Below, one piece after another: positions 8,376-37,126 of a stretch of DNA of 40,132 nt. The notes beneath the pieces are model-generated. The model was given only the letters and a program-made list of their open reading frames with translations, was not told the origin of the DNA and ran no database searches. The translations under genes and the position numbers were made by a program. Position 1 is the stretch's first letter. Each line of letters starts with the position of its first letter. The stretch is from Candidatus Nomurabacteria bacterium (GTDB lineage: Bacteria; Patescibacteriota; Minisyncoccia; Phycocordibacterales; UBA918): assembly GCA_020632075.1 (NCBI GenBank), contig JACKGH010000001.1, forward strand, positions 1 through 40,132. Reading direction: 5' to 3'.

Positions 8376-8735
8376 ATGAAAAAAGCCAACTCACTTTTCA
8401 CCAGTCTGTACACCTTTGCTCTAGTGTTCGGACTTCCAGTTGTTGCCGCAGCAGCTGATTTTTCTTGGACGGTCGAGAACCTTACTAAGTTCCCAGACCT
8501 TAAAACACTACTTCTCGGCATTCTCAACGTCTTCGTGGTGATCGCAACTCCGATCGTGGTGCTATTTATCATTTACTCTGGCTTTTTGTATGTGACAGCG
8601 CGTGGTAACCCGCAACAGCTCGAACAAGCGACACGTTCACTTACCTATTCGATCATTGGCGGGATACTCATTCTTGGTGCTGTTGCCTTCGCGGCAATTC
8701 TGCAGAATCTCATCAATGCCTTCGCGGCTCCGTAA
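8376..8735 (+). CDS. T4SS-type pilin (TrbC/VirB2-like), paralog 1, with signal peptide
   Basis: 119 aa. Signal peptide, then two hydrophobic helices joined by the loop ARGNPQQ. This is the typical two-helix pilin hairpin. Confidence 0.7.
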   Translation: MKKANSLFTSLYTFALVFGLPVVAAAADFSWTVENLTKFPDLKTLLLGILNVFVVIATPIVVLFIIYSGFLYVTARGNPQQLEQATRSLTYSIIGGILILGAVAFAAILQNLINAFAAP

Positions 8736-8746
8736 GCAATAATCGT

Positions 8747-9016
8747 ATGGGATCTAAAGAACTTACAAATCCACTCGCGTTTGCAAGTATTACTGATTTT
8801 CTTGCCGCAGTCTTGCAGGTGTTCATCATTATGGCGACCCCGATCGTTATCTTTTTCTTGATCTATGCTGGATTTTCATATGTCACTGCCCGTGGCAATC
8901 CAGCAAAGATCGAGCTGGCGAGTAAGTCGTTGCTCTACGGCGCAATTGGCGGAGTGGTAATACTTGGCTCAGTTGCGATTATGACCATTATTAAGAACCT
9001 GGTGGCTGCATTCTAG
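8747..9016 (+). CDS. T4SS-type pilin (TrbC/VirB2-like), paralog 2
   Basis: 89 aa. The segment ATPIVIFFLIYAGFSYVTARGNPAK closely parallels paralog 1. Confidence 0.7.
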   Translation: MGSKELTNPLAFASITDFLAAVLQVFIIMATPIVIFFLIYAGFSYVTARGNPAKIELASKSLLYGAIGGVVILGSVAIMTIIKNLVAAF

Positions 9017-9041: not shown

Positions 9042-9296
9042 ATGCCTCCAACAACGTACGCGGGTCTAGTAAATGAAGTAATAAATATCATCAACCTTGC
9101 TATACCGGCACTGTTTGGTTTTTTGTTTCTCTACTTCATGTGGAAAATGATCGACACGTGGATCCTACATGCTGGTGATCCAAATCAAATCGATGATGGG
9201 AAGAAGTATGCTATGGCTGCGGTGGTGGTCTTTGTGCTTGCGATCATCACCTACGGGCTTATCAGACTGATCAGAAATTCATTGTTTGGTGTGTAG
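9042..9296 (+). CDS. pilin-like two-helix membrane protein, paralog 3 (divergent)
   Basis: 84 aa, two TM helices with the loop HAGDPNQ. Confidence 0.55.
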   Translation: MPPTTYAGLVNEVINIINLAIPALFGFLFLYFMWKMIDTWILHAGDPNQIDDGKKYAMAAVVVFVLAIITYGLIRLIRNSLFGV

Positions 9297-9400: not shown

Positions 9401-9781
9401 ATGAAAAAGATTGCATATCTAACCGGTTCGCTTGCGACATTGGCTCTGCCAATGGTAGCGGGTGCGCAGGGTATTACAAAAGCTGGTGGTAATCTTGGTG
9501 GTTTTGAGATCATCATCACCAACATCACCAATGCTATTACTACCTACCTATTGCCGTTTGTTCTTGCGTTGGCATTCATCGCATTTGCCTGGGGTATGTT
9601 CCAGTACTTCATCGCTGGCGGTGCTAACGAAGAAGCAAAAGAAAAGGGTAAGAGTTTGATGATCTACGGTGTACTTGGATTCGTTATGATCCTTATCTTG
9701 TGGGGTCTGGTGAACTTCCTGGTAAACTTCACAGGTTTAGGTGGTGATGTTGTTGTACCGCCAGTCGTGCCAAAGATCTAA
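9401..9781 (+). CDS. T4SS-type pilin-like protein, paralog 4, with signal peptide
   Basis: 126 aa. Signal peptide plus two TM helices with the loop AGGANEE. Confidence 0.6.
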   Translation: MKKIAYLTGSLATLALPMVAGAQGITKAGGNLGGFEIIITNITNAITTYLLPFVLALAFIAFAWGMFQYFIAGGANEEAKEKGKSLMIYGVLGFVMILILWGLVNFLVNFTGLGGDVVVPPVVPKI

Positions 9782-9880: not shown

Positions 9881-10219
9881 ATGACACCACAAGAAAAGGC
9901 TGCAGCAGAAGCTGCTAGCTTTGTCGCGAAATTCAATAAGATCATTTTATTTCCAACCATCGCACTCCTGAGCGCGGTGGCATTCTTAGTGTTCCTTTGG
10001 GGTCTGGCTGAATACTTCATGAATGCAAATAATGAGCAGGCTAGACAGCAGGGAGTGAAACATATCACGTGGGGGATCATTGGTTTGGTGGTGATGATCT
10101 CGGCGTACGCGATTCTCACGGTTGCGGCTAACACCATTGGTATTGGTACGCAGCTGAAGTGTGCGACTGATCCAAGTCAACCTGGTTGTGGAGCTGCGTT
10201 TACTATTCCTGGTCCGTAG
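9881..10219 (+). CDS. pilin-like two-helix membrane protein, paralog 5
   Basis: 112 aa, two TM helices with the loop NANNEQ and a Cys-containing tail. Confidence 0.55.
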   Translation: MTPQEKAAAEAASFVAKFNKIILFPTIALLSAVAFLVFLWGLAEYFMNANNEQARQQGVKHITWGIIGLVVMISAYAILTVAANTIGIGTQLKCATDPSQPGCGAAFTIPGP

Positions 10220-10231
10220 GGAAGGGATCGA

Positions 10232-10276
10232 CAAAAGAAAAGGGCCGAAGCAGCAAGCTGCTTCGGCCCTATTTGG
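10232..10276. terminator. bidirectional terminator hairpin between convergent genes
   Basis: GGGCCGAAGCAGC-aa-GCTGCTTCGGCCC, with an A-rich run on one side and a T-rich run on the other. Confidence 0.65.
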
Positions 10277-10317
10277 TAGGACCCCTCAAACAAGAGGAGT
10301 TAAAGAACGTTGGAGAC

Positions 10318-11817
10318 TCAGCGTTGCTGTCGTATCAGAAAGCGTACGCCGGGTTGTCCCATAGCAAGCGCGACCGCTTCGATTGGACCTTCTTCGTCAG
10401 CTTTCTGTCTTGGCTTTGGTGTTAGTCGATGGATGTTCTGGGTTGAGCCCGGAACCTGCCACGGATACAGAAAGTTCACAAATTCCTCGGGATACTTGCC
10501 GGCAAGGTAATACTTCTCATCATCGGTATTTGTTACCAGACTGATGATCAGAGGCTTGCCGGCAACCTTCGGATACAACTGCAATTCCTCACCTCCTTGG
10601 CAGATGGTGAGCGTGCGTCCCCGTTCGTCAAACTTGTAATGCTCGACGCTTGCGGGGGTTGCGCAGCTGTCCGCCATTGCGACGGCTGTGCTAAACGAAA
10701 GGCCGTTCATAACTCCGGCCACGTTCAGTGCGATGACGGCAACAGCAGCCAGGAGGCTAGAGAAGCCCAAAGCAACGATGACTGCAGCCAGATTGATACC
10801 GTAGTCTTTGGATTCCTCTTTCGAGTCACTCCCAGACTTTTTCTTCCGAGGGATGATGCGCCACACAACGATGGTGCCGACCACGATCAGGCCGGCGACC
10901 CACCAGGGCATGTGAATCCTTTCCTCGACCCAGCTGATTGCCGGGTGTTTGGATATTGCACCATTTACGGTGCTGCCCCAGGTTTTGGCGTTCTGCCCCT
11001 GAACATCTTCGGTCGTGATGGGTACGAGCCGTACCCCATCCTTGGGATGGAAGCAGGTACCCTTGGTGGCGTAGTCGAACCCTTTTGCGGGGTATTCGAT
11101 GAGCACGCCTTCGATGTACTCTGAACGGCACATCTCCGGAGTGTAGTCACCAACCACCTCCCTCGTCACCGGATGAACCATGCGAATGGCTTCTCCGTTA
11201 GCGAAGTTTTTGCCAGGGTACTGGGGGAAGATGGCGATCCAGGCCGCGAAGATCGAAGCCAGGATTGCGTAGCCGAGGATGAATTTCCAGGCGACGCTGC
11301 CGTCGACATTGTAGTGTTGCAATGCCAGCAGGCCAAGCAAGACTGCCCAGAACATGATCCCGAACGAACCGATTGAGTGCTCAAACGGGAAGGTCATCAG
11401 CGTGAATCCAGCGACTACGGCGAGTAGCATGAAGGCGATGACAATCCGCATCCAGAGCAGAAGTCCTTGGAATACACCCTTGGACTTATCCTTGTCCTGT
11501 AGGAAGTGGGCGATAAGCCCGAAGACGCCAAATGCTAAAAGGTTGGTAACCTTGACGCCAGCCATCAGAATCATGAAGAACCCGATGAGCATGACGGCGG
11601 AGTTTACAAAGGGGTGGATGTAGACGTTTACGAGCAACATCACCACCACCAACCCGAGGACTGCCATAATGCTGAACAGTCCAGCCATGAAGATCTTGGT
11701 GAAGTTGTGAGTGATGAAGTTGCCCCAATCCTCAGTCGAGCTGTTGGAGTCTGGGACGACCACGTCGTCTTCGTCGGGGGCTCTGAAAGCCCAGGTCAGT
11801 TTTTTGAGCAGATTCAT
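10318..11817 (-). CDS. hypothetical polytopic membrane protein, 499 aa (about 8 TM, two soluble domains)
   Basis: SD is GGAGA 8 nt upstream and overlaps the stop of the upstream gene. Six N-terminal TM helices, a soluble domain of about 100 aa, two more TM helices, and a C-terminal domain of about 120 aa. No family recognised. Confidence 0.7.
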   Translation of the reverse strand: MNLLKKLTWAFRAPDEDDVVVPDSNSSTEDWGNFITHNFTKIFMAGLFSIMAVLGLVVVMLLVNVYIHPFVNSAVMLIGFFMILMAGVKVTNLLAFGVFGLIAHFLQDKDKSKGVFQGLLLWMRIVIAFMLLAVVAGFTLMTFPFEHSIGSFGIMFWAVLLGLLALQHYNVDGSVAWKFILGYAILASIFAAWIAIFPQYPGKNFANGEAIRMVHPVTREVVGDYTPEMCRSEYIEGVLIEYPAKGFDYATKGTCFHPKDGVRLVPITTEDVQGQNAKTWGSTVNGAISKHPAISWVEERIHMPWWVAGLIVVGTIVVWRIIPRKKKSGSDSKEESKDYGINLAAVIVALGFSSLLAAVAVIALNVAGVMNGLSFSTAVAMADSCATPASVEHYKFDERGRTLTICQGGEELQLYPKVAGKPLIISLVTNTDDEKYYLAGKYPEEFVNFLYPWQVPGSTQNIHRLTPKPRQKADEEGPIEAVALAMGQPGVRFLIRQQR

Positions 11818-11831
11818 CTATATTTCTCCTG

Positions 11832-12773
11832 TTAGCTGAGAAGTCTGTAGAAAAATCTGCGGATAGGTGACCATCTTGCCACTTCCGCACGATTTTTCGC
11901 TGCTTGTGTGCGGATGTGGTTGTTGATAGAAGCTCCGACGAGCTTCAGTTTATCGAAGCTGTCAGGAACGAACTCGTCGATCAGATCCAGAGTCTTTTTG
12001 TTGGGCATCAGCGGCACACCGAGTGCGTGCATGTATGCGACAGCGGCTTTGAAGCCGTCCTCGCGTTTACCTTTGACGCTTCTCTTGGTGCTTTCGCTTT
12101 CAGCCTTCTTGACGACCGAAACGATATGCTTGAGAAACCTTACGGTGTTTTTCGATTCCCCTTTGTACAGGTCCTCGCTTACCGTAGTCGTTTCCGTATC
12201 GAGCGGAACAGGCTTTTTATTCGCCTTCGGATCTTTTGGGTTCTGTGCCTTCGGATCTTTGCCGTTGGCCGCCTTCTGACCTTTGTTCTCGGTGGACTCA
12301 GGTTGTTTACCTGGTTCCTCATCTGCAACATTGGTTTCAAGCGGCCTGTCTTCTTCGGAAAAGCCCGGGAGTTTGACGGCGGTGACCACTTTCTTGGTGC
12401 CGACTTTCTTTGAAGCCGAATCCAGTCCGGTGACTGCCACTCGGAACTTATTCATCTGTGCAAAGGCAATTGCGGCCTTCACCCAGCTCCGGGGGTTTTC
12501 ACTGCTGCCGAAATGGTAGTGAATGAGGCCTACCAGAATCTCCTGGTCCTCCTCATCCAGTTCGAGAACAGCTCGAATGAACTTGATCTCGTCCCCATAA
12601 CCGGTAAGTCCAACGCGAAGTTTTTCTTCCGGCGGCAGGGAAGGGTCCACATCGGTCCGCTTTCCCACGACGCCCTTGAGGACATCGAAGACCGCATAGA
12701 TCTCGCCCCAATGGTCTTTAAGGAAGCTTACGACCTTTCGGGTCGCAGTTGTGTCAATGACTTTTGCTGCCAT
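11832..12773 (-). CDS. hypothetical protein, 313 aa, with a central Lys/Pro/Glu-rich disordered segment
   Basis: Start taken at ATG 12773, preceded by GGAGA 7 nt upstream. First gene of a two-gene operon. No family recognised. Confidence 0.65.
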   Translation of the reverse strand: MAAKVIDTTATRKVVSFLKDHWGEIYAVFDVLKGVVGKRTDVDPSLPPEEKLRVGLTGYGDEIKFIRAVLELDEEDQEILVGLIHYHFGSSENPRSWVKAAIAFAQMNKFRVAVTGLDSASKKVGTKKVVTAVKLPGFSEEDRPLETNVADEEPGKQPESTENKGQKAANGKDPKAQNPKDPKANKKPVPLDTETTTVSEDLYKGESKNTVRFLKHIVSVVKKAESESTKRSVKGKREDGFKAAVAYMHALGVPLMPNKKTLDLIDEFVPDSFDKLKLVGASINNHIRTQAAKNRAEVARWSPIRRFFYRLLS

Positions 12774-12832
12774 TTTTTGTCTCCAAATTGTCAAAAATTC
12801 ATTGAGAGGTAAGTCCTCTCTACCTGTTTTCT

Positions 12833-12861
12833 ATAATAGCATAAAATATAGTAAAAGTCAA
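12833..12861 (-). promoter_or_regulatory. sigma70-type promoter of the two-gene operon
   Basis: Minus strand reads TTGACT-17 nt-TATTAT with TGC before the -10. Confidence 0.5.
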
Positions 12862-12878
12862 GGATAGGGAAGGGTAAA

Positions 12879-13025
12879 ATGGCCTTATTTCTAGCCATAC
12901 TTTTGATATTTTGGTGGTTTTTGGTATGGGCCGCTTGCGCGACCAGATTTTTAGGGAGCGGTTTAGCGACCATAAAAATGGAAGTACTCTTTGTGGTGGA
13001 GCAAGCGTTTTGTAAAATGATTTGA
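12879..13025 (+). CDS. possible small hydrophobic protein, 48 aa (below the ORF-track cutoff)
   Basis: ATG preceded by GGGAAGGG. Translation is MALFLAILLIFWWFLVWAACATRFLGSGLATIKMEVLFVVEQAFCKMI, with one clear TM helix. Confidence 0.3.
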   Translation: MALFLAILLIFWWFLVWAACATRFLGSGLATIKMEVLFVVEQAFCKMI

Positions 13026-13065
13026 AGGCGTCACTGAGAAGTAGTTTTTCTTATGAGGTTTTGGT

Positions 13066-14121
13066 ATGATGGCGGCCATGAATACAGCGCAAAAAAGAGA
13101 TCTCCGTAGTCGCGAGCAAAAGCGTCACGATGCGGCGCTCGATACTCGGCCACGCACTACCGTGTCGTTCTATCGCTATGTGCGCTTGGCTGATCCTCAG
13201 GCATTCCGGGATAAGTTGTTTGCTAAGTGGTCTGAACTTGACTGTATGGGACGTATTTACGTCGCTTCTGAAGGTATTAATGCCCAGATGAACGTCCCAG
13301 ACATGTACTGGGATCAGTTTGATGCGTGGGTGCAGAATCAGCCTGAACTCAAGGGAATTCCATACAAAATTGCGGTTGAGGAAGGTGAAGCGCCGTCATT
13401 TTTCAAACTAACGATCAAAGTGCGACCGAAGATCGTGGCTGATGGTCTCGACGACAGCACGTTTGACGTGACCAACACTGGAGCGTATCTCACAGCAGCG
13501 CAAATGAATGAGTACGTCGATGATCCAGGCGCAGTGGTGTTTGATATGCGCAACAACTACGAAGCAGAAGTTGGACATTTTGCAGGTGCGATCACGCCAG
13601 ACGACTTCTCTACTTTTCGTGACGAACTTAAGAACACGCCAGAGCTTCTGAAGGAACACAAAGATAAGAAGGTGGCGATCTACTGCACGGGCGGCATTCG
13701 CTGCGAAAAAGCATCTGCTTGGCTAAAGCATAACGGCTTTAAAGATGTGAAGCACCTCAAAGGTGGAATCATTGACTACAAGCGCCAAGTAGAAGAGCAA
13801 GGTCTTGAGAATAAATTCCGGGGTAAGAATTTCGTGTTTGACGAGCGACTTGGTGAACGGATCAGTGATGAGGTCATCTCAACCTGTCATCTTTGCAAAA
13901 CAAACAAATGTGACACGCACCATCACTGCAAGAACCAGATCTGTCACCAGTTATTCATCGGGTGTGATGACTGTATCGAAAAGCGCAAAGGGTACTGTTC
14001 ATGGAAATGTGCGCAAGTAGACAAGATCCCGCAGAAATACAAGAAGCCGATCGCGCGTTGGTACAACCAACTCATTCGCAAACGACGACCGTTTCAGAAG
14101 ACAAGACTACAAGCCTCTTAA
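13066..14121 (+). CDS. trhO: rhodanese-domain protein of the UPF0176/TrhO (tRNA uridine-34 hydroxylase) type
   Basis: 351 aa. Rhodanese active-site loop YCTGGIRCEKA and the Cys/His-rich C-terminal extension typical of this family. Confidence 0.75.
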   Translation: MMAAMNTAQKRDLRSREQKRHDAALDTRPRTTVSFYRYVRLADPQAFRDKLFAKWSELDCMGRIYVASEGINAQMNVPDMYWDQFDAWVQNQPELKGIPYKIAVEEGEAPSFFKLTIKVRPKIVADGLDDSTFDVTNTGAYLTAAQMNEYVDDPGAVVFDMRNNYEAEVGHFAGAITPDDFSTFRDELKNTPELLKEHKDKKVAIYCTGGIRCEKASAWLKHNGFKDVKHLKGGIIDYKRQVEEQGLENKFRGKNFVFDERLGERISDEVISTCHLCKTNKCDTHHHCKNQICHQLFIGCDDCIEKRKGYCSWKCAQVDKIPQKYKKPIARWYNQLIRKRRPFQKTRLQAS

Positions 14122-14130
14122 TCCGCTGTT

Positions 14131-16218
14131 ATGGTTCGATCGCTGTTACTCACTGTTACGTTTCTCTCGGCTGCACTACTGTTCACTATCCAGCCTTTGT
14201 ACGCAAAATATCTGCTGCCGTCATTTGGTGGCACCTCATCAGTGTGGACGATCTCAGTCTTTTTCTATTCCACGACATTGCTCCTAGGATACATTTACGC
14301 GTCTCTACTTACTAGTATGCCTTCACGGCAAGCACTACTCCTCCATGCGAGTTTGCTTTCGTGTACTGGTCTCATGTTGCTGTCGCGCTGGATCGGCGCC
14401 GATTCACCGCTTTTGATCGATACTGTTTCGGGTGGTTGGCCAGCCCTTTCAGTGTTACTCACATTGCTTTATGCGCTCGGGTTGCCGGTGCTGTTGCTGG
14501 CCAGCACCTCAGTCTTGGTGCAGCATCTGTTTGCGCGACTCACTAAAGACGAGCCATATGCGTTGTATGGTCTATCTAATGCTGGTTCATTGCTTGGTCT
14601 CCTCCTGTACCCGTTTGTGCTTGAGCCGTTCACTGATCTTTCGGTGCAAGCGATCTGGTGGATGTGCGGATATCTGCTATTTTTACTCATTCTACTTTTT
14701 GCTTGGCACAAAACCGAAACCCAGGCTCCAGAGGGTAAGCCGGCAAAGTTCTTGATGACAAAGTTGCGGCACCGGCCACAGATCATTTTCATGGCTGCTA
14801 TCCCGACCTTTTTGCTTGCCTCCGGTACAGAATTTCTAAGTAAGGGAATCGCGTCGTTTCCGCTCTTGTGGGTCATTCCGCTCGTCTTGTATCTTCTCTC
14901 GTTTATTTTTGCCTTTAGAAACACCGAAGGTAAGGTGTCGCGCACAAAGCTTGGGTTTGGGTTGATACTGTTACTCTTATTGGTATTTTCTATACTGCCA
15001 GTCATCGACTCGGGAGTAGCGGTGTATTGGGTCGGCTTCGTGTGTTTTAGTGTCACTTTTTACTTCATTTGTCTCTACTTCCATAAAAGAATCTACGATC
15101 TTCGACCACGAGTGTCTGAATTAGGTAGTTTTTATGTGTTTTTGACCATTGGTGGAGCACTTGGTTCTGGTTTGGTGGGTTTTGTCATGCCCACACTTCT
15201 CAATGATCAGGTAGAACTGCATTATGTGTTGGCTGCTCTGATGTTGTACTTCGTCTCTCGGTATATGGAATGGTTGACCGGTACGGTTCAAGCTTTCTTT
15301 GTCCGGGCAACCCAAGCATTCTTGTTTTTTGCGACGTTTTTGTTCCTGACCTCAGTTACAATGGATGAGAGTCTGTATGCCAGCGAACGGAATTTCTATG
15401 GCACGTTAAAGGTACATGATCAAACGATCATGTTGGATGAGGAAGCAGTCACGCTCCGAACGATCTCAAATGGTGCAACTAATCACGGACACCAGCCTCA
15501 AGATGCACGGTACGAGCGAATTCCTGGTAGCTACTACGGACCAGGTTCAGGAATTGATGTTGCCATACAACACGCAGAATCAAAACAAGGAGCTCCGCGT
15601 GTCGCCGTGGTGGGGTTGGGAGCTGGAATGATGGGTGCGTACTGCGATCAGATGGCAGATCTTACGTTCGTTGAGATCAATCCTTTGGTGGTAGCCATGG
15701 CTAGGGATCACTTTACGTTCTTGGACATGTGTCCAGACAAGACCGAAGTCCTTATTGGTGACGGTCGACTTGTTTTGGAAGAATTGGCTGCAAGAGAAGA
15801 ACAGAAATTTGATGTGATCATGATCGATGCATTTACCGACGATGCGATCCCTTCACATCTTTTGACAGCTGAAGCATTTACTGGTGCGTATCAGCCATTG
15901 CTGGCTGATGGTGGGGTGTTGGTCGTGCATATTTCAAATAAATACTTGAATCTACATTTACCGATCGCTGCAATGGCGCGAGCAGGTAGATATGAGATCT
16001 TGACGGTCAATAATCGAGTTGACGGTTCAGATCCGTTGGCAATGAATAGTAGCTGGGTTTTAGTGGTTAAACCTGATGAAGTTGGAGAGTTTTTGGGTTA
16101 TGAGAATGTTGCAGAATACACTGGCAAGGAACTCCTTTGGACAGATCAGAAAAATAGTGTGATTGGTGCTTTGTCACTCAGCGGAAGTAGAATAAGCGTT
16201 GATACTTCATCAGAATAG
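14131..16218 (+). CDS. fused polytopic membrane / spermidine-synthase-like protein
   Basis: 695 aa. Many N-terminal TM helices, then a C-terminal methyltransferase-fold domain (VAVVGLGAGMM, VIMIDAFTDD). Confidence 0.8.
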   Translation: MVRSLLLTVTFLSAALLFTIQPLYAKYLLPSFGGTSSVWTISVFFYSTTLLLGYIYASLLTSMPSRQALLLHASLLSCTGLMLLSRWIGADSPLLIDTVSGGWPALSVLLTLLYALGLPVLLLASTSVLVQHLFARLTKDEPYALYGLSNAGSLLGLLLYPFVLEPFTDLSVQAIWWMCGYLLFLLILLFAWHKTETQAPEGKPAKFLMTKLRHRPQIIFMAAIPTFLLASGTEFLSKGIASFPLLWVIPLVLYLLSFIFAFRNTEGKVSRTKLGFGLILLLLLVFSILPVIDSGVAVYWVGFVCFSVTFYFICLYFHKRIYDLRPRVSELGSFYVFLTIGGALGSGLVGFVMPTLLNDQVELHYVLAALMLYFVSRYMEWLTGTVQAFFVRATQAFLFFATFLFLTSVTMDESLYASERNFYGTLKVHDQTIMLDEEAVTLRTISNGATNHGHQPQDARYERIPGSYYGPGSGIDVAIQHAESKQGAPRVAVVGLGAGMMGAYCDQMADLTFVEINPLVVAMARDHFTFLDMCPDKTEVLIGDGRLVLEELAAREEQKFDVIMIDAFTDDAIPSHLLTAEAFTGAYQPLLADGGVLVVHISNKYLNLHLPIAAMARAGRYEILTVNNRVDGSDPLAMNSSWVLVVKPDEVGEFLGYENVAEYTGKELLWTDQKNSVIGALSLSGSRISVDTSSE

Positions 16219-16492: not shown

Positions 16493-16579
16493 GTCGGGTC
16501 GGAGTATAGCAAATATTGTTCGAGAGTGCGAGTTGAAGGGGTGTAACTGCGAGGTTTTGGCTTTGTTATAATCATTGCA

Positions 16580-17737: not shown

Positions 17738-17788
17738 TATATGATGCTGTACTCTATAGGGTGAAGCATTGCTAGTGTAGTTTTTGGT

Positions 17789-18409
17789 ATGAAATTTTCA
17801 AATACGATCGGAAAGATGCGGTATAAGACATATGTCGTTGCGGCTGTGAGCTATGTGTTTGCGGGGTATTTCTTTTTGTATGGCAACTCCAATGAGTCAT
17901 GGGTGTTTCTCTTGATCTTCGGTACGTTTTGGTTACTGGTCTCGATGTACAACACGGTGATCGAAGTTGATGTACAGACAAAATTGGTCAAAAAACAGAA
18001 GCGGTTTGGTCCAGTAACCTTTGCAGCAACACAGGTGCCGGTTGAAACATATGGCGCAGTTATGTTGCGACCATGGGCAGAGGTCTATAGCAACAACATT
18101 AGTCGGCAAGCAACGGCGTATTGTTATTTAGTGACTAAAGATAAGTTGCCTACAATTCGAGAAGCATATGAAGCACAACAGGCTGCTCTCCATGGTCCGG
18201 ATCTGACTGCTCCACCAACAGTTGGTGATGTGGCTCATAAGATCATGGACACGATCCATAACGGCTCGACCCAGCCATCGAAGCTGACCATGAACGCTGG
18301 ATTGATAGTGACGGAAGCACCGGTCGAGCGTGTGCACGAGGTGAGAGGGGTGGCGGCACAGCTGGCTGAGCAACTTGGTTTACCAATGTATGATTTCTGT
18401 GTGCGGTAA
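17789..18409 (+). CDS. hypothetical membrane protein, 206 aa
   Basis: Two N-terminal TM helices. The start context is TTTTGGTATGAAATTTT. Confidence 0.6.
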   Translation: MKFSNTIGKMRYKTYVVAAVSYVFAGYFFLYGNSNESWVFLLIFGTFWLLVSMYNTVIEVDVQTKLVKKQKRFGPVTFAATQVPVETYGAVMLRPWAEVYSNNISRQATAYCYLVTKDKLPTIREAYEAQQAALHGPDLTAPPTVGDVAHKIMDTIHNGSTQPSKLTMNAGLIVTEAPVERVHEVRGVAAQLAEQLGLPMYDFCVR

Positions 18410-22274: not shown

Positions 22275-22697
22275 TTGTTTAAGTCTCTCTTGACGGTGCC
22301 TGTTATTGCAACTTGTTATGCGATCTGGCCAACAGCAATTGCCTACACCGGCATAAACTCAGCCTGGGGTGGCTTCATTGCGATGTTCACCACAACGGTG
22401 GCTGTTATGGTTTGGGGGGTCGTGAGCGGCAATGTCGCAATTACTCCAGACAGTAGGTCAGTCGTTTTCATGGTGGTCGCAGGTCTGATCAACGGGATCG
22501 GAATTGTGTACCACTCAAAAGCAATGAGCGATCCTGAGGTCGTAAAGGTGATCTTTCAGCCATCAATGGCTGTCGGCATGGTGATTTTCTCTGCTTTGAT
22601 CGCATGGTTCGTGCTCAAAGAGCCGGTTTCTCTCCGTCAGGGAGTCTGGCTTGCAGCAGCGGCGTTTTGCGTGGTTATGGCCACAACCCAAAAGTAA
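22275..22697 (+). CDS. small polytopic membrane protein (EamA/SMR-like half-transporter?)
   Basis: 140 aa, 4-5 TM helices. TTG start preceded by GGGAGGA 7 nt upstream. Confidence 0.5.
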   Translation: MFKSLLTVPVIATCYAIWPTAIAYTGINSAWGGFIAMFTTTVAVMVWGVVSGNVAITPDSRSVVFMVVAGLINGIGIVYHSKAMSDPEVVKVIFQPSMAVGMVIFSALIAWFVLKEPVSLRQGVWLAAAAFCVVMATTQK

Positions 22698-28743: not shown

Positions 28744-28836
28744 AGGTCTATGTAATTGTGACTTGCTTAAACAAGTTGCACTAAAATACCACAACTGATT
28801 GCTTTTTCAAAGCCTCTGCATGGTATTATTTTGGTA

Positions 28837-29871
28837 ATGAAAAAATATTACATCCCATTTTTTGTGTTTGCGTTGTTGGTGGTGCCAACCGCCGCGTCAG
28901 CTGCTGGATTCATTCCTTGTGGTGGTGATGGACAGCCAGAGTGTCAGGCCTGCCATTTTGTTGAGTTGGGCAACAAGCTTATCGTTTGGCTTATCGGAAT
29001 TTTGATGGTGGTGTTTGCTTTTATCATGGCAACTGCTGGCTGGGGTCTAGTGACTTCTGGCGGGAATCCTCAAGCAAAGACCGCCGCAAAGGATAAGTTC
29101 ACCAATGCGATCATTGGTCTCGTGATCGTACTGGCTGCATGGCTGTTGATCGATACGCTCATGAAAATGCTTCTTACTCCTGGCGCAAAGAGTCTTACAA
29201 CGCTTGGTCCGTGGAATCAGGTTGAGTGTACCAAGCAACCAGAGGTCAAGGCTGCGACGGTGGCGTGGGGTGGTGATCCTGGTAGTTTGTATGGTAATTC
29301 AGAAGTAGTATCGACAGCAGTGTGTTTGACGGCGAACTGTGTCGACGAGATCGCAGCCTGTGAAGATAAAGGTTTGATTGCTGAACGAGACATTCCGACC
29401 AACAAGGTTAATTGCTGGGACATCAAGGTGGGGGCACCCGCTCCGCTTACCGGTACTCCGCCGATTGCGTGTAGTGGTGGTGAGTGTACTGACTTGACTG
29501 GTTTGGTACCTTGTAAGGCTGGTTCAGGCTGTTCGATTTCTCCAGATATGGCACTGAAACTGGCCGATTTTCACGCTGACGCTGCAGTGGCAGGGGCGCG
29601 TATTACAGAGGCTATGCCCCCAACTCGCACACACCGATCATCATGCCACACCGAAGGGACCTGTATTGACTACAGTAAGGTTGGTGGTATGACCCCAGCA
29701 GAGGTGAACAGTGTGATTGCGTCAGCTGTCGCAAACGACCTTCGTCCGGTGTATGAGGTTGGCACACCTGCTGAGAAGCAAGCTTTGGTTGACGGTGGTG
29801 TACCGGCTGAGTATATCAAGACACTCGGAAGTCATATTTCAGCACCACACTTCTCGATCTACGGATATTAG
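28837..29871 (+). CDS. secreted fusion protein: Cys-motif T4SS-pilin-like two-helix module plus a C-terminal H-x6-D...H (LAS/M15-like) putative peptidoglycan peptidase
   Basis: Signal peptide. The pilin-type segment reads CGGDGQPECQACHF...VTSGGNPQAK...LAAWLLIDTLMKMLL. The C-terminus has CHTEGTCID (His codon 29647-29649, Asp codon 29668-29670) and GSHISAPHFSIYGY. It is a paralog of the C-terminal third of the next gene. Confidence 0.8.
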   Translation: MKKYYIPFFVFALLVVPTAASAAGFIPCGGDGQPECQACHFVELGNKLIVWLIGILMVVFAFIMATAGWGLVTSGGNPQAKTAAKDKFTNAIIGLVIVLAAWLLIDTLMKMLLTPGAKSLTTLGPWNQVECTKQPEVKAATVAWGGDPGSLYGNSEVVSTAVCLTANCVDEIAACEDKGLIAERDIPTNKVNCWDIKVGAPAPLTGTPPIACSGGECTDLTGLVPCKAGSGCSISPDMALKLADFHADAAVAGARITEAMPPTRTHRSSCHTEGTCIDYSKVGGMTPAEVNSVIASAVANDLRPVYEVGTPAEKQALVDGGVPAEYIKTLGSHISAPHFSIYGY

Positions 29872-30030: not shown

Positions 30031-33000
30031 ATGTTCAGTATTAAAAACCTCTCTCGTATTATTGGTTTGATGACGCTCGTGTTACTGCTGGTGCCGTTTG
30101 CTGATGTGCAAGCTGCTTGTTCGCGCGGTGTCATAAGCGCAAATCCACAGAGCATTAGTGAAGGCATTGATTCACGGCTCACCTGGCTCATTAATGATGC
30201 GTACATCGGCATGGTAACTGGTGTAAACGTCACAGGGTTTGGTAGTGTCGGCCCGGCTGGTGCCCCAACGGTGAATCCGGCAGTGACGACCACTTACACC
30301 ATGACAGCTAGTTTTAACGACGGTGTAGTCGAGAGTTGTTCAGCTACGGTGTACGTGGGAGAGGAAGCTCCTGACTTTGGTAGTATTGAGCTGCTCGATC
30401 AGCTTTTTACGCCTGACTCTGAAAATCAATGGTTTAAGCCTTGGGATAGTCCGTATACAGAGGCTGATCTTAAATCAGATGATAATGGCCGCTTGGTAAA
30501 TGTAACCGTGCAGAATAAAGTGGTCGGTGCTGGTGAAGGTAGTATATACCCGATCTTCGTATTGAGAGATAGTCAAGGGACATTGGTTGATCTGGTATAC
30601 GGTGACATGGAAAAAGCGACACAGAAATACGTTTTTTCTGATGATGTGAATACGTATCCAGCCGGAACCCCCGTAGTGCAAAATGATGATGGAACGGTTA
30701 CTTCAGAATATAAGATACTCAAGACAGGTGAAGCGTATGAATTTACTGGAATGGCGTTTGATAAAACCCAGGTCGATCTGCCGCAGGTTTTTAATGTGAT
30801 CAATGAGATCACAGGTACTGGTGAGATCCCTGAAGGTGCTGGCTTACCACCACAGAGCACAGTATTCACAATGGTGCTTTCAAATGGTGGTGTGATACAG
30901 CCAGACGGTTCCGTGTGTCCTGATCCTGCGTGTGCAGTCAATGACGCTGACGGCATTCCTGCTGGACCGGGTGCCCCCGCAACCCCGATCGACCTGGCAG
31001 ACCCAGCTGATCCAGTAAACCCAGTGCAGCCGGCTCCAGCTCCCAATGTAACTCCGATGCAACAGATGGTACCGATCGGTGCTCCAAAACCGTGTGTTGA
31101 CCCAGGCTTTAATGGTTGGATGTGTCTTAAGTTGCGATATGGTGCAACCCCATACACAGTAACTGCTCGCTACAATCTGACTGCTGGAGGGCAGACTGAT
31201 ACGGTGATCTGGTTCTCGGGCGGCGGGGGTACAACAATTAATAGGACCGTTTCTGGCGGAGCCGCTGTGCAGGATAGATTGGCAGCTGAAAATGTACGCT
31301 CTATCGATATTCAATTCACAAATACAGATCCAGATATCTGGAGTAGTGGTACTCTCAATCCGACGTTGGCTGGGCTGCCTGACAAGTCTGCCTTGGTTGC
31401 TTCCATTACAGATTACTTAGTTGATAATGGTTTCACGGCTGGAAAAAAAGCTAAAATTGCAGCCGGTAGCTTTGGTACATTGCTTACAAGTTATGCTCTT
31501 GCGTACCATGGTCTTGAGAGTAATGTCGACGAGGTCGTGCTGTCTTCAGGTCCGATGGGATTCAGTTTTTCTCAGGAATTGCATGATGTAAGTTCCCCAA
31601 TATATCTTGATCCTTCTGTTAAGCTGGGTCCAACTCCGGTGGTTGATATTGTTAAAGCAGCTAATGCCTGGAATGTGATACCTGCTTGTAATCCGGGAGT
31701 GACACCGTGTCCAGAGAACGACGCTGTCTCAATGTTTGATGCTACGGGAGTACCGTTTCCTGGCGTTGATGTTGTGTATCCGGGAGTGGAAGTCCATACA
31801 ATTTTGGGAGGGAAAGACGTGCCATGGTTTTTGGCTTCAAATGCATATTGGAATGTGCGTATAAGTGCAGCAGCACGAACAACAGATATATTTCCAAGTC
31901 TTGGTCACGATTTATACTTCAATAGTGACGTACAAGATTTGGTTGTAAATTATTTAGTGGCAATGAGCCCGAGCGATCCGATCAACCCCGCTAATCCAGC
32001 CAACCCCGCCAACCCCGCTAATCCAGCCAACCCCGCCAACCCCGCTAATCCAGCCAACCCAGGAGACTCTGCGAATCCTGCCAACCCTGGAGACCCTGCA
32101 AACCCAGTCAATCCTGGAGATCCAGCGCCAGTGCCGCTCGCGCCAGATCCTTCGATTGCGCTTAACAATAGCTCTTTTTCAAGTGTCTCTTCTTTGCCTC
32201 CTGCTCCACCGGTAGGGAGTGCGCCCGCTGATGGAGGATTAGTCCCTTGTGGTGGTCCAGGTGAGGAGCCGTGTAAAAGCTGTCATGTGGTACAGCTTGT
32301 GAACAATGTTTCTAAGTGGTTGGTCGGGATCATGATGATTGTCTTTGCGATCATGGTGGTTGTCTCTGGTATCTTGCTTACTTCGTCAACCGGTAATCCT
32401 GAAATGAAGGTTGCAACGAGGCGTCGTATTGCCAATGCTGCGGTGGGCCTCATTATTGTGCTGGCGGCTTGGATACTAATTGATACGGTCATGAAAATAT
32501 TGCTTAAGACCGGTCCAGGAAGCTTGGGTCCATGGAACGAGATCCAGTGTACAGTACAGCCGCTCGTGAATGATGCAATGTACGCTTGGGGCGGTGATCC
32601 AAGTAACCTGTATGGAAACTCTTCAGTGATCGATACTACACTTTGTGCTGCCGGTGCGGGTGGGAACACTGACTGTGAAGCTTTGATCAATAATTGTCAG
32701 CGTAGTGGCTATACACCGACAGTTGATAAGAGCAATCCGGCAAATTACGTTGTGAACTGTATTGAATTGCGTGTTGGTTCTCCAGCCCCTCTGCCAGGAG
32801 CAACGCCAGTTTCGTGTTCTGGTAGTGAGTGTACACCACTTGATCCAGCAATGTGTAAGGATCTGAATAGTTGCTCGATCTCACCTGACCTGCAACCGAA
32901 GCTCGATAGTATGCATACCGCAGTTGCTGCACTTGGTGGTCGTGTTTCTGAGGCTATGCCACCGACGTACAATCATATTTCAAAGTGTCACAACAATGGT

Positions 33001-33213
33001 ACTTGTATTGATTACAGTAAGGTTGGTGGTTTCGATGCTGGTGAAATCAATGCAGTGATTGCGGCAGCAGTAGCGAATGATCTTCGACCAGTGTATGAAG
33101 TGCATACTGAGGCTGATAAAAAAGTGCTCGTAGAAGCAGGTGTGCCAGCTGAGTACATTGTTTCGCTTGGCAGTCACATTTCTGCACCGCACTTCTCGAT
33201 CTACGGATATTAG
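30031..33213 (+). CDS. 1060-aa secreted mosaic surface protein (Ig-like, alpha/beta-hydrolase-like, PANPAN linker, internal pilin module, LAS/M15-like peptidase)
   Basis: Signal peptide ending VQA. The motif AGSFG (Ser codon 31468-31470) and GHDLYF (His codon 31906-31908) suggest a Ser/His hydrolase. The pilin module is at about 32233-32508 (CGGPGEEPCKSCH...STGNPEMK...). The C-terminus carries CHNNGTCID...GSHISAPHFSIYGY. Confidence 0.85.
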   Translation: MFSIKNLSRIIGLMTLVLLLVPFADVQAACSRGVISANPQSISEGIDSRLTWLINDAYIGMVTGVNVTGFGSVGPAGAPTVNPAVTTTYTMTASFNDGVVESCSATVYVGEEAPDFGSIELLDQLFTPDSENQWFKPWDSPYTEADLKSDDNGRLVNVTVQNKVVGAGEGSIYPIFVLRDSQGTLVDLVYGDMEKATQKYVFSDDVNTYPAGTPVVQNDDGTVTSEYKILKTGEAYEFTGMAFDKTQVDLPQVFNVINEITGTGEIPEGAGLPPQSTVFTMVLSNGGVIQPDGSVCPDPACAVNDADGIPAGPGAPATPIDLADPADPVNPVQPAPAPNVTPMQQMVPIGAPKPCVDPGFNGWMCLKLRYGATPYTVTARYNLTAGGQTDTVIWFSGGGGTTINRTVSGGAAVQDRLAAENVRSIDIQFTNTDPDIWSSGTLNPTLAGLPDKSALVASITDYLVDNGFTAGKKAKIAAGSFGTLLTSYALAYHGLESNVDEVVLSSGPMGFSFSQELHDVSSPIYLDPSVKLGPTPVVDIVKAANAWNVIPACNPGVTPCPENDAVSMFDATGVPFPGVDVVYPGVEVHTILGGKDVPWFLASNAYWNVRISAAARTTDIFPSLGHDLYFNSDVQDLVVNYLVAMSPSDPINPANPANPANPANPANPANPANPANPGDSANPANPGDPANPVNPGDPAPVPLAPDPSIALNNSSFSSVSSLPPAPPVGSAPADGGLVPCGGPGEEPCKSCHVVQLVNNVSKWLVGIMMIVFAIMVVVSGILLTSSTGNPEMKVATRRRIANAAVGLIIVLAAWILIDTVMKILLKTGPGSLGPWNEIQCTVQPLVNDAMYAWGGDPSNLYGNSSVIDTTLCAAGAGGNTDCEALINNCQRSGYTPTVDKSNPANYVVNCIELRVGSPAPLPGATPVSCSGSECTPLDPAMCKDLNSCSISPDLQPKLDSMHTAVAALGGRVSEAMPPTYNHISKCHNNGTCIDYSKVGGFDAGEINAVIAAAVANDLRPVYEVHTEADKKVLVEAGVPAEYIVSLGSHISAPHFSIYGY
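31975..32125 (+). repeat. in-frame tandem repeat encoding (PAN)n / PANPGD
   Basis: The 27-bp unit AACCCCGCTAATCCAGCCAACCCCGCC occurs at 31984-32010 and again at 32011-32037. A third partial copy follows, then degenerate PANPGD units. Confidence 0.9.
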
Positions 33214-35890: not shown

Positions 35891-37126
35891 ATGGCATTTC
35901 AAGGTGATTCAATATACTGGGTGGAAGTAGAGAAGGTTGTTCCTAATCCGTTTCAGCCAAGACGAGAATTTGATCAGAACAAGCTGCAAGAACTGGCAGA
36001 TTCTATTCGCATGTACGGCGTGCTACAGCCACTCACAGTGACGCGCAAGGAGATCCAACGTGAAGATGGAACGTTTTACTCAGAATACGAACTGATTGCA
36101 GGAGAGCGTCGTATGCGCGCAAGTAAATTGGCCGGTGTCGCACAGGTGCCAGTGATTATTCGTGAAGGGGAGCAGAGCGAACAAGAAAAGCTCGAACTTG
36201 CGATCATTGAGAACTTGCAGCGTGAGGATCTCAATGCGGTTGATCGTGCTCTCGCATTTCGCCAGCTCGCAGATGCGTTTGGGCTGTCACATGCACAGGT
36301 AGCGCAGAAAGTCGGTCGCAGTCGTGAGTATGTTTCGAATTCCATTCGTCTTCTTGGTTTGCCTGATCATATGCTGGATTCGCTCAAGATCGCTGACATG
36401 ATGGAAGGGCATGCCCGCACGCTTCTCATGCTCACTGATCGCCCTGAAGAGCAAGAAGTGGTCTATAAAGAGATCTTGCTAAAAAAGCTCTCAGTACGCG
36501 AAGTAGAGCGTATTGTGCGCAAGATCGCGACTGATAAAGTACGTAAAAAGAACCCGCTTGAATTTGATGAGAGTCTCATCGAATTTGAAAAGAAATTTAC
36601 CGAGACGCTCGGTACTCGGGTACAGATCCAAAAGACTGACTTCGGTGGCAAGCTCACTATTGACTACTTTTCAGAGGAAGACTTGGAAGCCATTTTGCAG
36701 CGCATGGCAGCTGAAGTTGCCGCGTCTCAGCCAGTTGAGTCAACAACATATGAAATGGTCAATCGACTTACAGAGCACACCCCACTTTCTGTAGATGAAG
36801 AAAGCGTTGAGTCTGCAAGCTACGAGCAGTCGCGGTCAGTGCAAGAGATGTCCGTACGAGAGCCGCAGTTTATTGTGACTCGAGCGGTGACCTATCTAAC
36901 TACGCCAGTACCTGAACCAGTGCAAGAAGAGGCCGTAGATGATTCAGGATCGCTTGCAAGTTACATCCAACGCCCACCTGAGCCATCGTTTACGCCTCGG
37001 CGTGAGCCTTCATTTGTGGCGCAGAGTTTTGATGAGCCTGTGTCTGAGCCAGCTCCAGAAAAACAGCCTGAGTCACCTCAGTCAGACGACAGTGGTCTCT
37101 ACTCAATTCGAAACTTTACTGTTTAG
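35891..37126 (+). CDS. parB: ParB/Spo0J partition protein with a long disordered C-terminal extension
   Basis: ParB-box motif ELIAGERRMRAS and an HTH segment (SHAQVAQKVGRSREYVSN). GGAGGT lies upstream. Confidence 0.9.
   Translation: MAFQGDSIYWVEVEKVVPNPFQPRREFDQNKLQELADSIRMYGVLQPLTVTRKEIQREDGTFYSEYELIAGERRMRASKLAGVAQVPVIIREGEQSEQEKLELAIIENLQREDLNAVDRALAFRQLADAFGLSHAQVAQKVGRSREYVSNSIRLLGLPDHMLDSLKIADMMEGHARTLLMLTDRPEEQEVVYKEILLKKLSVREVERIVRKIATDKVRKKNPLEFDESLIEFEKKFTETLGTRVQIQKTDFGGKLTIDYFSEEDLEAILQRMAAEVAASQPVESTTYEMVNRLTEHTPLSVDEESVESASYEQSRSVQEMSVREPQFIVTRAVTYLTTPVPEPVQEEAVDDSGSLASYIQRPPEPSFTPRREPSFVAQSFDEPVSEPAPEKQPESPQSDDSGLYSIRNFTV

Follow-up and report, generated by a model that had tools for sequence, protein, structure and literature searches.

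A two-gene operon in a fixed, hypervariable slot beside a VirB2-like pilin array of Patescibacteria is probably exchanged by homologous recombination

Replacement flexible genomic islands are exchanged by homologous recombination, and their boundaries are marked by peaks of substitutions that are for the most part synonymous (Lopez-Perez, Martin-Cuadrado and Rodriguez-Valera 2014, PMC4033161). The type IV pili of Pseudomonas aeruginosa come with cassettes of pilin-accessory genes, namely TfpO, TfpW and TfpX/Y/Z (PMC11841053). In Patescibacteria, a further report describes arrays of VirB2-like pilin genes together with components of the type IV secretion system (T4SS) near virB4, and cites a study according to which such arrays are essential for epibiotic growth in a related bacterium of the candidate phyla radiation (CPR) (PMC12102498). 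Here, we present a locus that touches on all three, from a 40,132-nt stretch of a Candidatus Nomurabacteria bacterium (assembly GCA_020632075.1, contig JACKGH010000001.1, positions 1 to 40,132), hereafter the window. In it, two minus-strand genes, which we term geneA and geneB, lie between five VirB2/TrbC-like pilin genes and a trhO-like rhodanese gene (Table 1). An earlier note on this DNA had taken the segment for a 2.6-kb foreign islet inserted between two copies of a 10-bp direct repeat. We propose instead that 10220-13065 is probably a native two-gene operon in a fixed, hypervariable slot, exchanged by homologous recombination and thus a replacement-type islet.

The fixed position emerges from an anchor search of the GTDB species-representative genomes, which recovered 57 loci (one contig contributed two). 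These present a conserved order of a methyltransferase gene, an anchor gene, four to seven pilin genes, a gap, trhO and a gene for a fused major facilitator superfamily (MFS)/spermidine-synthase-like protein, the pilin array being found in those loci that reach beyond the anchor. The pilin array is hence the conserved left neighbour of the slot and trhO its usual right neighbour, and in all 38 species with both sides on the contig the gap between them measures 2.0-3.2 kb. In nearly all of these 38 the gap is filled by two minus-strand genes, one coding for a polytopic membrane protein by the pilins and a second lying upstream of it; in four further species, the pair likewise follows the pilins, but its neighbour is not trhO. 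Likewise, on three contigs from distant relatives, homologues of geneA with 36-40% identity adjoin trhO in the same orientation, and also adjoin pilin genes where the contig reaches that far.

The content of the slot is hypervariable. In BLASTP clustering, the pilin-adjacent protein is a member of the geneB family in 18 species and, in the rest, falls into different clusters or is a singleton; the gene upstream of it belongs to the geneA family or to one of four clusters. In tested members of these four non-A clusters, an SPFH/Band-7 domain is present (PF01145, with E values as low as 4e-11); it was recovered in the first slot gene of the loci L023 and L031 (E ~4e-11) and, with weaker matches, in that of L018 and L024. 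The slot families (B, P4 and P5 by the pilins; A and the four SPFH clusters upstream) combine in mosaic fashion and are scattered over the anchor-gene tree; profile-profile comparison of them recovered weak links among the SPFH clusters only, and none between B and P4 or P5. The cassette proteins are also more diverged than the anchor protein, with median identities of 25-31% as against 48-61%. The one clear departure from this is a segment holding the SPFH gene, at 5209-6631 in L043 and 3869-5301 in L047: protein identity there is 95% and DNA identity, over 1445 nt, 86%, whereas the anchor proteins of the two loci are 57% identical, the adjacent membrane proteins 31% and the flanks 63-72%. 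A single cassette gene has thus moved between the two species, in what looks like a recent transfer.

Replacement is also seen between co-existing strains. A second contig in the same metagenome bin (L014) has a trhO 93% identical to that of the window and a promoter region (12776-12939) 94.5% identical to it, with both promoter hexamers kept despite the replaced downstream genes, but it lacks any DNA similarity to the window across 11222-12775. Closer to the pilins, 64 mismatches separate the two over 10948-11213, and 10622-10947 is identical. At the protein level, the two versions of geneA match each other with a BLASTP E of 0.11 and are 26% identical in a multiple alignment, and in geneB, identity is about 40% up to residue 200 and rises to about 97% beyond residue 225. 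Between window and L014, codons 200-299 of geneB have a synonymous divergence (dS) of 0.6-1.2 and a nonsynonymous divergence (dN) of 0.13-0.16, as against a dS of 0.40 and a dN of 0.009 in trhO. Another contig, L008, is a recombinant: its pilin 5 differs by 0.2% from that of the window, yet its geneB is of the L014 type. On a yet smaller scale, the 98 nt that separate pilin 5 from geneB (10220-10317) come in two alleles 11% apart (compare L003, L004, L008, L009 and L010), with the genes on either side only 0-0.2% different; this stretch, which takes in the left 10-bp repeat, represents a recombination patch of very short length.

Further, short-read contigs stop or begin exactly at 10947, 11107, 11136 and 11221, which are allele junctions, a pattern that co-existing alleles produce in de Bruijn graph assemblies. 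Deeply diverged alleles co-exist in one population. The variable block hence lies at 10948-12775 and not at 10217-12874, with homologous sequence on both sides. An exactly identical pilin 5 is encoded by 15 public contigs, and among the ten of these that were listed, nine run past pilin 5 into geneB, the tenth ending within the terminator between them. By its proteins, the organism belongs to a population of Candidatus Kaiserbacteria (Patescibacteria/CPR), of which the metagenome-assembled genome (MAG) GCA_020428695.1 and a contig of about 1.0 Mb are further representatives.

Taking these observations together, we advance the following mechanism. The slot lies directly after the VirB2-like pilin array throughout a family of Kaiserbacteria-like Patescibacteria, with its position fixed and its content hypervariable, and alleles, even unrelated gene pairs, would be swapped by homologous recombination starting in the conserved flanks. 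For such exchange, the left flank would be made up of the pilin side together with the 3' third of geneB, and the right one of the promoter/trhO intergenic region. The resulting diversity might then be kept by frequency-dependent selection exerted by phages, hosts or competitors.

The compositional contrast that had given the segment its foreign look was confirmed, and proves to extend well beyond the window. G+C content in 500-nt windows reaches 0.50-0.56 in the interior as against 0.486 for the whole window, and G+C content at third codon positions (GC3) is 0.680 in geneB, the highest of the 36 open reading frames (ORFs) compared (mean 0.498, sd 0.065), and 0.596 in geneA. Within geneB, it peaks at 0.68-0.84 in the hypervariable part. 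Tetranucleotide deviation, which the earlier note had suggested as a check, does peak at 10201-12800, but only with z=1.7 (rank 10 of 188), and is stronger in a pilin-fusion gene at 30-33 kb (z=2.5, the window maximum) and in clpB. Strand bias was considered as a cause of the high GC3 and rejected, as the other six minus-strand genes have GC3 values of 0.45-0.53. Across species, cassette GC3 exceeds flank GC3 in 34 of 37 cases, by 0.14 on average (Wilcoxon p=8e-10).

A parallel contrast is found in the signals for translation initiation. With a Shine-Dalgarno motif defined as GGAG or GAGG at -17 to -5, the loci of related species have one in 34 of 70 cassette genes (49%) versus 21 of 404 neighbouring ORFs of at least 150 aa (5%; Fisher p=2e-18). 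The exceptional ORFs of the window that possess the motif are geneA (GGAG, 8 nt upstream of its ATG), geneB (AGGAG, likewise 8 nt upstream), a 48-aa hydrophobic ORF before trhO, an ORF at 22275 and parB at 35891. Hence, the "foreign" signature is a constant property of the slot across species and not the mark of a recent arrival. We infer that the raised GC3 stems from frequent recombination by way of biased gene conversion, from a common gene pool, or from both. For the signature as a whole, the candidates may be a common gene pool, GC-biased gene conversion at a hot spot of recombination, with Shine-Dalgarno motifs being needed on the G+C-richer mRNAs, or special expression demands.

In terms of their products, geneA and geneB define two uncharacterised protein families. 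The AlphaFold2 model of geneB has a predicted local distance difference test score (pLDDT) above 90 for about residues 50-270 and predicts a six-helix membrane bundle (about residues 27-196) with an invariant loop motif, LQDKDKS. It is followed at residues 200-290 by a beta-rich domain with conserved cysteines at residues 230 and 255, predicted to be extracytoplasmic, and then by two further membrane helices and a poorly modelled C-terminal domain. Word-index homology searches with geneB were swamped by hydrophobic words and returned 2 proteins only; an exhaustive search of 1.84 billion representative proteins gave just 47 relatives at E <= 1e-3, with a conserved core at residues 45-230. In contrast to the confident core of geneB, the model of geneA is poor (mean pLDDT 54), with helical ends, a disordered Lys/Pro-rich middle and no membrane segment.

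Searches of Pfam, NCBIfam, PADLOC and PHROGs assigned neither protein to a family, and 43 relatives of geneB gave no Pfam match either; the SPFH domain of the other clusters was not detected in the geneA of the window. Neither AlphaFold2 model has a significant PDB match by Foldseek, and profile searches of PDB sequences returned nothing. No relatives of the pair were found on viral contigs in IMG/VR, which leaves a phage or mobile-element origin unsupported. The pilin neighbours had also prompted the idea that geneB is a VirB6/TrbL-like polytopic T4SS component, which was rejected for want of sequence, PDB profile or fold support. From position, topology and population genetics, we favour a role as an envelope module, which would pair a polytopic membrane protein, exposing Cys-containing domains, with a cytoplasmic or SPFH-type partner and, judging by its position, might work with, or alongside, the pilin array. 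A part in defence or exclusion would be its main functional rival.

Three accounts compete with replacement by homologous recombination. That of the earlier note has a foreign islet of 2.6 kb inserted at an ancestral junction of pilin 5, a Shine-Dalgarno motif and a small ORF, with duplication of the 10-bp target TAGGGAAGGG. As in the insertion of an insertion sequence (IS), a miniature inverted-repeat transposable element (MITE) or an integrative islet, a short direct repeat does stand near both ends of a compositionally distinct segment: the two copies are exact at 10217-10226 and 12865-12874, the TAG of the left one being the stop of pilin 5 and the right one ending 4 nt before the ATG of the 48-aa ORF. 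The raised G+C and GC3, and the fact that the segment is a unit with its own promoter and terminator, would equally suit an inserted islet. The chance of about one in a hundred that had been put on such a match holds for 100-nt flanks (a common 10-mer occurs in 0.0091 of all pairs of 100-nt segments 2648 nt apart in the window), but once the search space is counted the repeat does not exceed chance. With the real intergenic flanks, of 101 nt and 292 nt, a common 10-mer has P=0.035 under dinucleotide shuffling; and because the window contains 273 exact direct repeats of at least 10 nt lying 0.5-6 kb apart, and a 10-mer is common to 6 of the 66 pairs of intergenic regions flanking one to three genes, the repeat is unremarkable. 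Nor is it conserved among carriers. The left copy reads TAGAGAAGGAGAT in L003, L004, L008, L009 and L010, contigs 95-99% identical overall in which the genes are present; its absence from near-identical carriers had been named in advance as telling against a duplicated target. The right copy is kept in L011, L012 and L014, and neither was found in the distant carriers L015-L017. No empty site appeared in nine informative close contigs or in the 38 species with both flanks, the predicted junction ...CCGTAGGGAAGGGTAAAATGGCC..., which would join pilin 5 to the 48-aa ORF and trhO, having a counterpart as a pilin-to-trhO junction in no relative. A first scan of JGI metagenomes gave nothing, and a scan with the pilin-5 junction pattern gave only four unrelated chance matches. 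The empty site had been drawn with a Shine-Dalgarno motif and the tight spacing thought typical of the cluster, but none of the five pilin genes has such a motif and their spacings range over 11-104 nt. The lack of terminal inverted repeats is confirmed, and no integrase or transposase was recognised, as neither interior protein matches Pfam, NCBIfam or PHROGs. The variable block moreover ends elsewhere, its limits of 10948 and 12775 lying 720 nt and 90 nt inside the left and right repeats, and the small ORF of the supposed junction is not a conserved gene. Relatives have the two genes at the same position, which the earlier note had thought would speak against insertion if their composition were native-like; that composition is raised in them too. 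What survives of the foreign islet is a distinct segment belonging to an exchangeable part of the genome, whereas both the mechanism and the limits proposed for it are refuted; the match between the two repeat copies is due to chance and has no role, and insertion with target duplication is to be regarded as highly improbable.

The converse possibility is that nothing was exchanged, and that the pair descended purely vertically while evolving very fast in place, under relaxed or diversifying selection, so that the apparent families would be a single diverged one. It is consistent with cassette proteins that are almost always less similar than their flanks, with the constancy of the position and the two-gene minus-strand layout, and with versions of geneA in the window and L014 that can still be aligned. 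However, the geneA of the window is nearer to its distant homologues (36-40% by BLASTP, 47-49% in alignment) than to the L014 allele (26%), even though the flanks of the latter are 93% identical; an identical tract borders a saturated one within geneB; and neither the recombinant L008, nor the near-identity of the SPFH genes in L043 and L047 beside so diverged an anchor, nor an SPFH domain that is present or absent in the first gene of families scattered on the tree, is expected of vertical descent. We consider it unlikely. The remaining account makes the slot a defence or conflict hot spot, where anti-phage, exclusion or toxin-immunity cassettes merely happen to sit beside the pilin array. 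Variable two-gene cassettes at a fixed site between core genes, membrane and SPFH proteins, and strong diversity maintained within one population would all be in keeping with it. Yet geneA and geneB match no PADLOC defence model, nuclease, NTPase or other effector domains were not detected, viral contigs hold no relatives, and the cassette stays with the pilin array even where trhO is not its neighbour; such a hot spot strikes us as rather improbable.

Homologous replacement of a native operon, which we accordingly prefer, has its own difficulties. Among strains, the allele in the cassette shows no co-variation with pilin 5, and the link to the pilins is one of position only, the operon being convergent with the array and not co-transcribed with it. 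The pair is not indispensable, as L029, alone among the loci, lacks pilin 5, the cassette and trhO together (at 12351-15062 of that locus the array ends at the fourth pilin and is directly followed by the MFS/spermidine-synthase-like gene). Instead of replacements, some of the slot families may represent homologues that have diverged to an extreme degree, hhalign being weak on small alignments. Cassette and flank GC3 are only moderately correlated (r=0.43, slope 0.53), a correlation that leaves in-situ processes and a common gene pool unseparated. Finally, searches for a family, a solved structure or a defence model gave no match for either protein. A more specific version of the preferred explanation is that the pair forms a two-gene specificity module coupled to the pilin array, which is repeatedly replaced from a gene pool common to several lineages and marked by a coding style of its own, with high GC3 and translation led by Shine-Dalgarno motifs in genomes otherwise nearly devoid of them, sets the interaction with partner, host or phage, and is under negative frequency-dependent selection. 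This we offer tentatively, as a possibility that we would not yet favour.

The anatomy of the locus is collected in Table 1. From its sequence, the segment reads as a self-contained minus-strand transcription unit with promoter, geneA, geneB and terminator, the two genes being separated by 14 nt and the whole running convergently towards the pilin array from its own promoter. On the minus strand, the stem of the terminator and its T-run are read over 10270-10241. On both strands, a T-rich run follows the small hairpin in the leader of geneA; this hairpin may act as an attenuator or an mRNA-stability element. To the left, the five pilin genes stand in tandem and are strongly diverged among themselves; the PF18895 domain also occurs in two more proteins of the window, of 346 aa (28831-29871) and 1060 aa (30031-33213; domain at residues 753-819).

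Table 1. Features of the slot and its neighbourhood (positions in the window)
Feature	Position	Strand	Basis or remark
Anchor gene, 438 aa	7041-8357		Conserved; upstream of pilin array
Pilin array, 5 VirB2/TrbC-like genes	8376-8735, 8747-9016, 9042-9296, 9401-9781, 9881-10219	+	Pfam T4SS_pilin PF18895, E 1e-3 to 3e-10
Left 10-bp repeat copy TAGGGAAGGG	10217-10226	+	Overlaps pilin 5 stop
G+C-rich hairpin, intrinsic-terminator-like	10238-10273		Between convergent pilin 5 and geneB; 13 pairs, 9 G-C; minus-strand T-run tail TTTCTTTTGT
geneB, 499 aa, multi-pass membrane protein	10318-11817	-	
Block differing between co-existing strains	10948-12775		All of geneA and geneB codons 1 to ~290
geneA, first operon gene, 313 aa from ATG at 12773 (320 aa from TTG at 12794)	11832-12773	-	
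Small hairpin GAGAGG-N5-CCTCTC, geneA 5' leader	12804-12820	-	Stem kept in L014
Promoter of geneA-geneB operon, sigma-70-like	12833-12861	-	TTGACT, 17 nt, TG-n-TATTAT; 10/12 matches, extended -10
Right 10-bp repeat copy TAGGGAAGGG	12865-12874	+	3 nt upstream of cassette promoter -35 box
48-aa hydrophobic ORF	12879-13025	+	Not conserved beyond the species
trhO-like rhodanese gene (UPF0176)	13066-14121	+	Pfam UPF0176_N, Rhodanese, Rhodanese_C

On the right, the first 20 codons of the 48-aa ORF are identical in L014 (1135-1228), where window positions 12940-13062 are missing and the counterpart reads through in frame into trhO; homologues of the ORF were not found in other species. Rather than being a conserved gene in its own right, it is probably an N-terminal membrane anchor that has become detached from TrhO. 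The TrhO ORFs of several other species have an N-terminus longer by 15-40 aa. Beyond trhO, 14131-16218 encodes a 695-aa protein with an MFS-like membrane domain fused to a spermidine-synthase-like domain (NCBIfam NF037959, E 1e-15); its weak match to the PADLOC model mad2 (E 3e-9) probably arises via the methyltransferase-like fold. The motifs GTTTTTGGTATG and GAGGTTTTGG recur at 12917-12928, 13055-13068, 16551-16560 and 17780-17791, directly before or at the start codons of plus-strand genes (trhO, 16580 and 17789), and may be a common leader or initiation-region motif. Within the 40-kb window, neither virB4 nor a 16S rRNA gene was found, and an Rfam scan recovered tRNAs only.

Several consequences follow for work on these genomes. 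The slot can serve to mark strain-level diversity in these MAGs, as well as the points at which their assembly breaks. The contrast in Shine-Dalgarno motifs and GC3 between cassette and surroundings could bear on translation initiation in genomes poor in such motifs, or on the origin of the genes. It is also worth recording that the insertion with target-site duplication is not real.

Compared with known systems, the cassettes fall between several described kinds. Operons that pair an SPFH/Band-7 protein with a membrane partner exist, such as qmcA-ybbJ and stomatin-NfeD, and in at least four of the relatives tested an SPFH gene likewise comes first and is followed by one for a small polytopic membrane protein. 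The geneA of the window differs from these in having neither an SPFH domain nor a membrane segment, and no NfeD domain was found in the tested partners of SPFH-type cassettes. With respect to the pilin arrays of Patescibacteria, the left neighbour of the slot is such an array, of five diverged tandem PF18895 genes; an attached hypervariable two-gene operon is not described in the consulted passages of PMC12102498, and none was found in literature searches. In Pseudomonas aeruginosa, the Tfp cassettes likewise encode variable, allele-specific membrane proteins next to a pilin gene, from which a terminator hairpin separates them, and are thought to be horizontally acquired as cassettes. Here, in contrast, the pilins are VirB2/TrbC-like and not type IV, the operon is convergent and comes with a promoter of its own, cassette alleles in strains do not follow those of the adjacent pilin, and the slot proteins have no sequence or fold similarity to Tfp proteins.

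The behaviour of the slot matches that of replacement flexible genomic islands. The slot differs from these in being tiny (~1.8-3 kb, two genes) where they are multi-gene glycan clusters, in residing in a reduced CPR genome, and in having a boundary that falls within a gene, so that geneB itself is mosaic; moreover, its family-wide GC3 and Shine-Dalgarno signature is not part of the described kind. In common with them, different or even unalignable genes occupy the same locus in strains and species; a boundary peak of largely synonymous substitutions adjoins near-identical sequence; and the alternative versions co-exist in one population. The products of the slot are predicted to be envelope proteins. 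We see in this locus a compact and clean replacement-type hypervariable locus of an uncultivated, reduced-genome lineage, attached to its VirB2-like pilin arrays.

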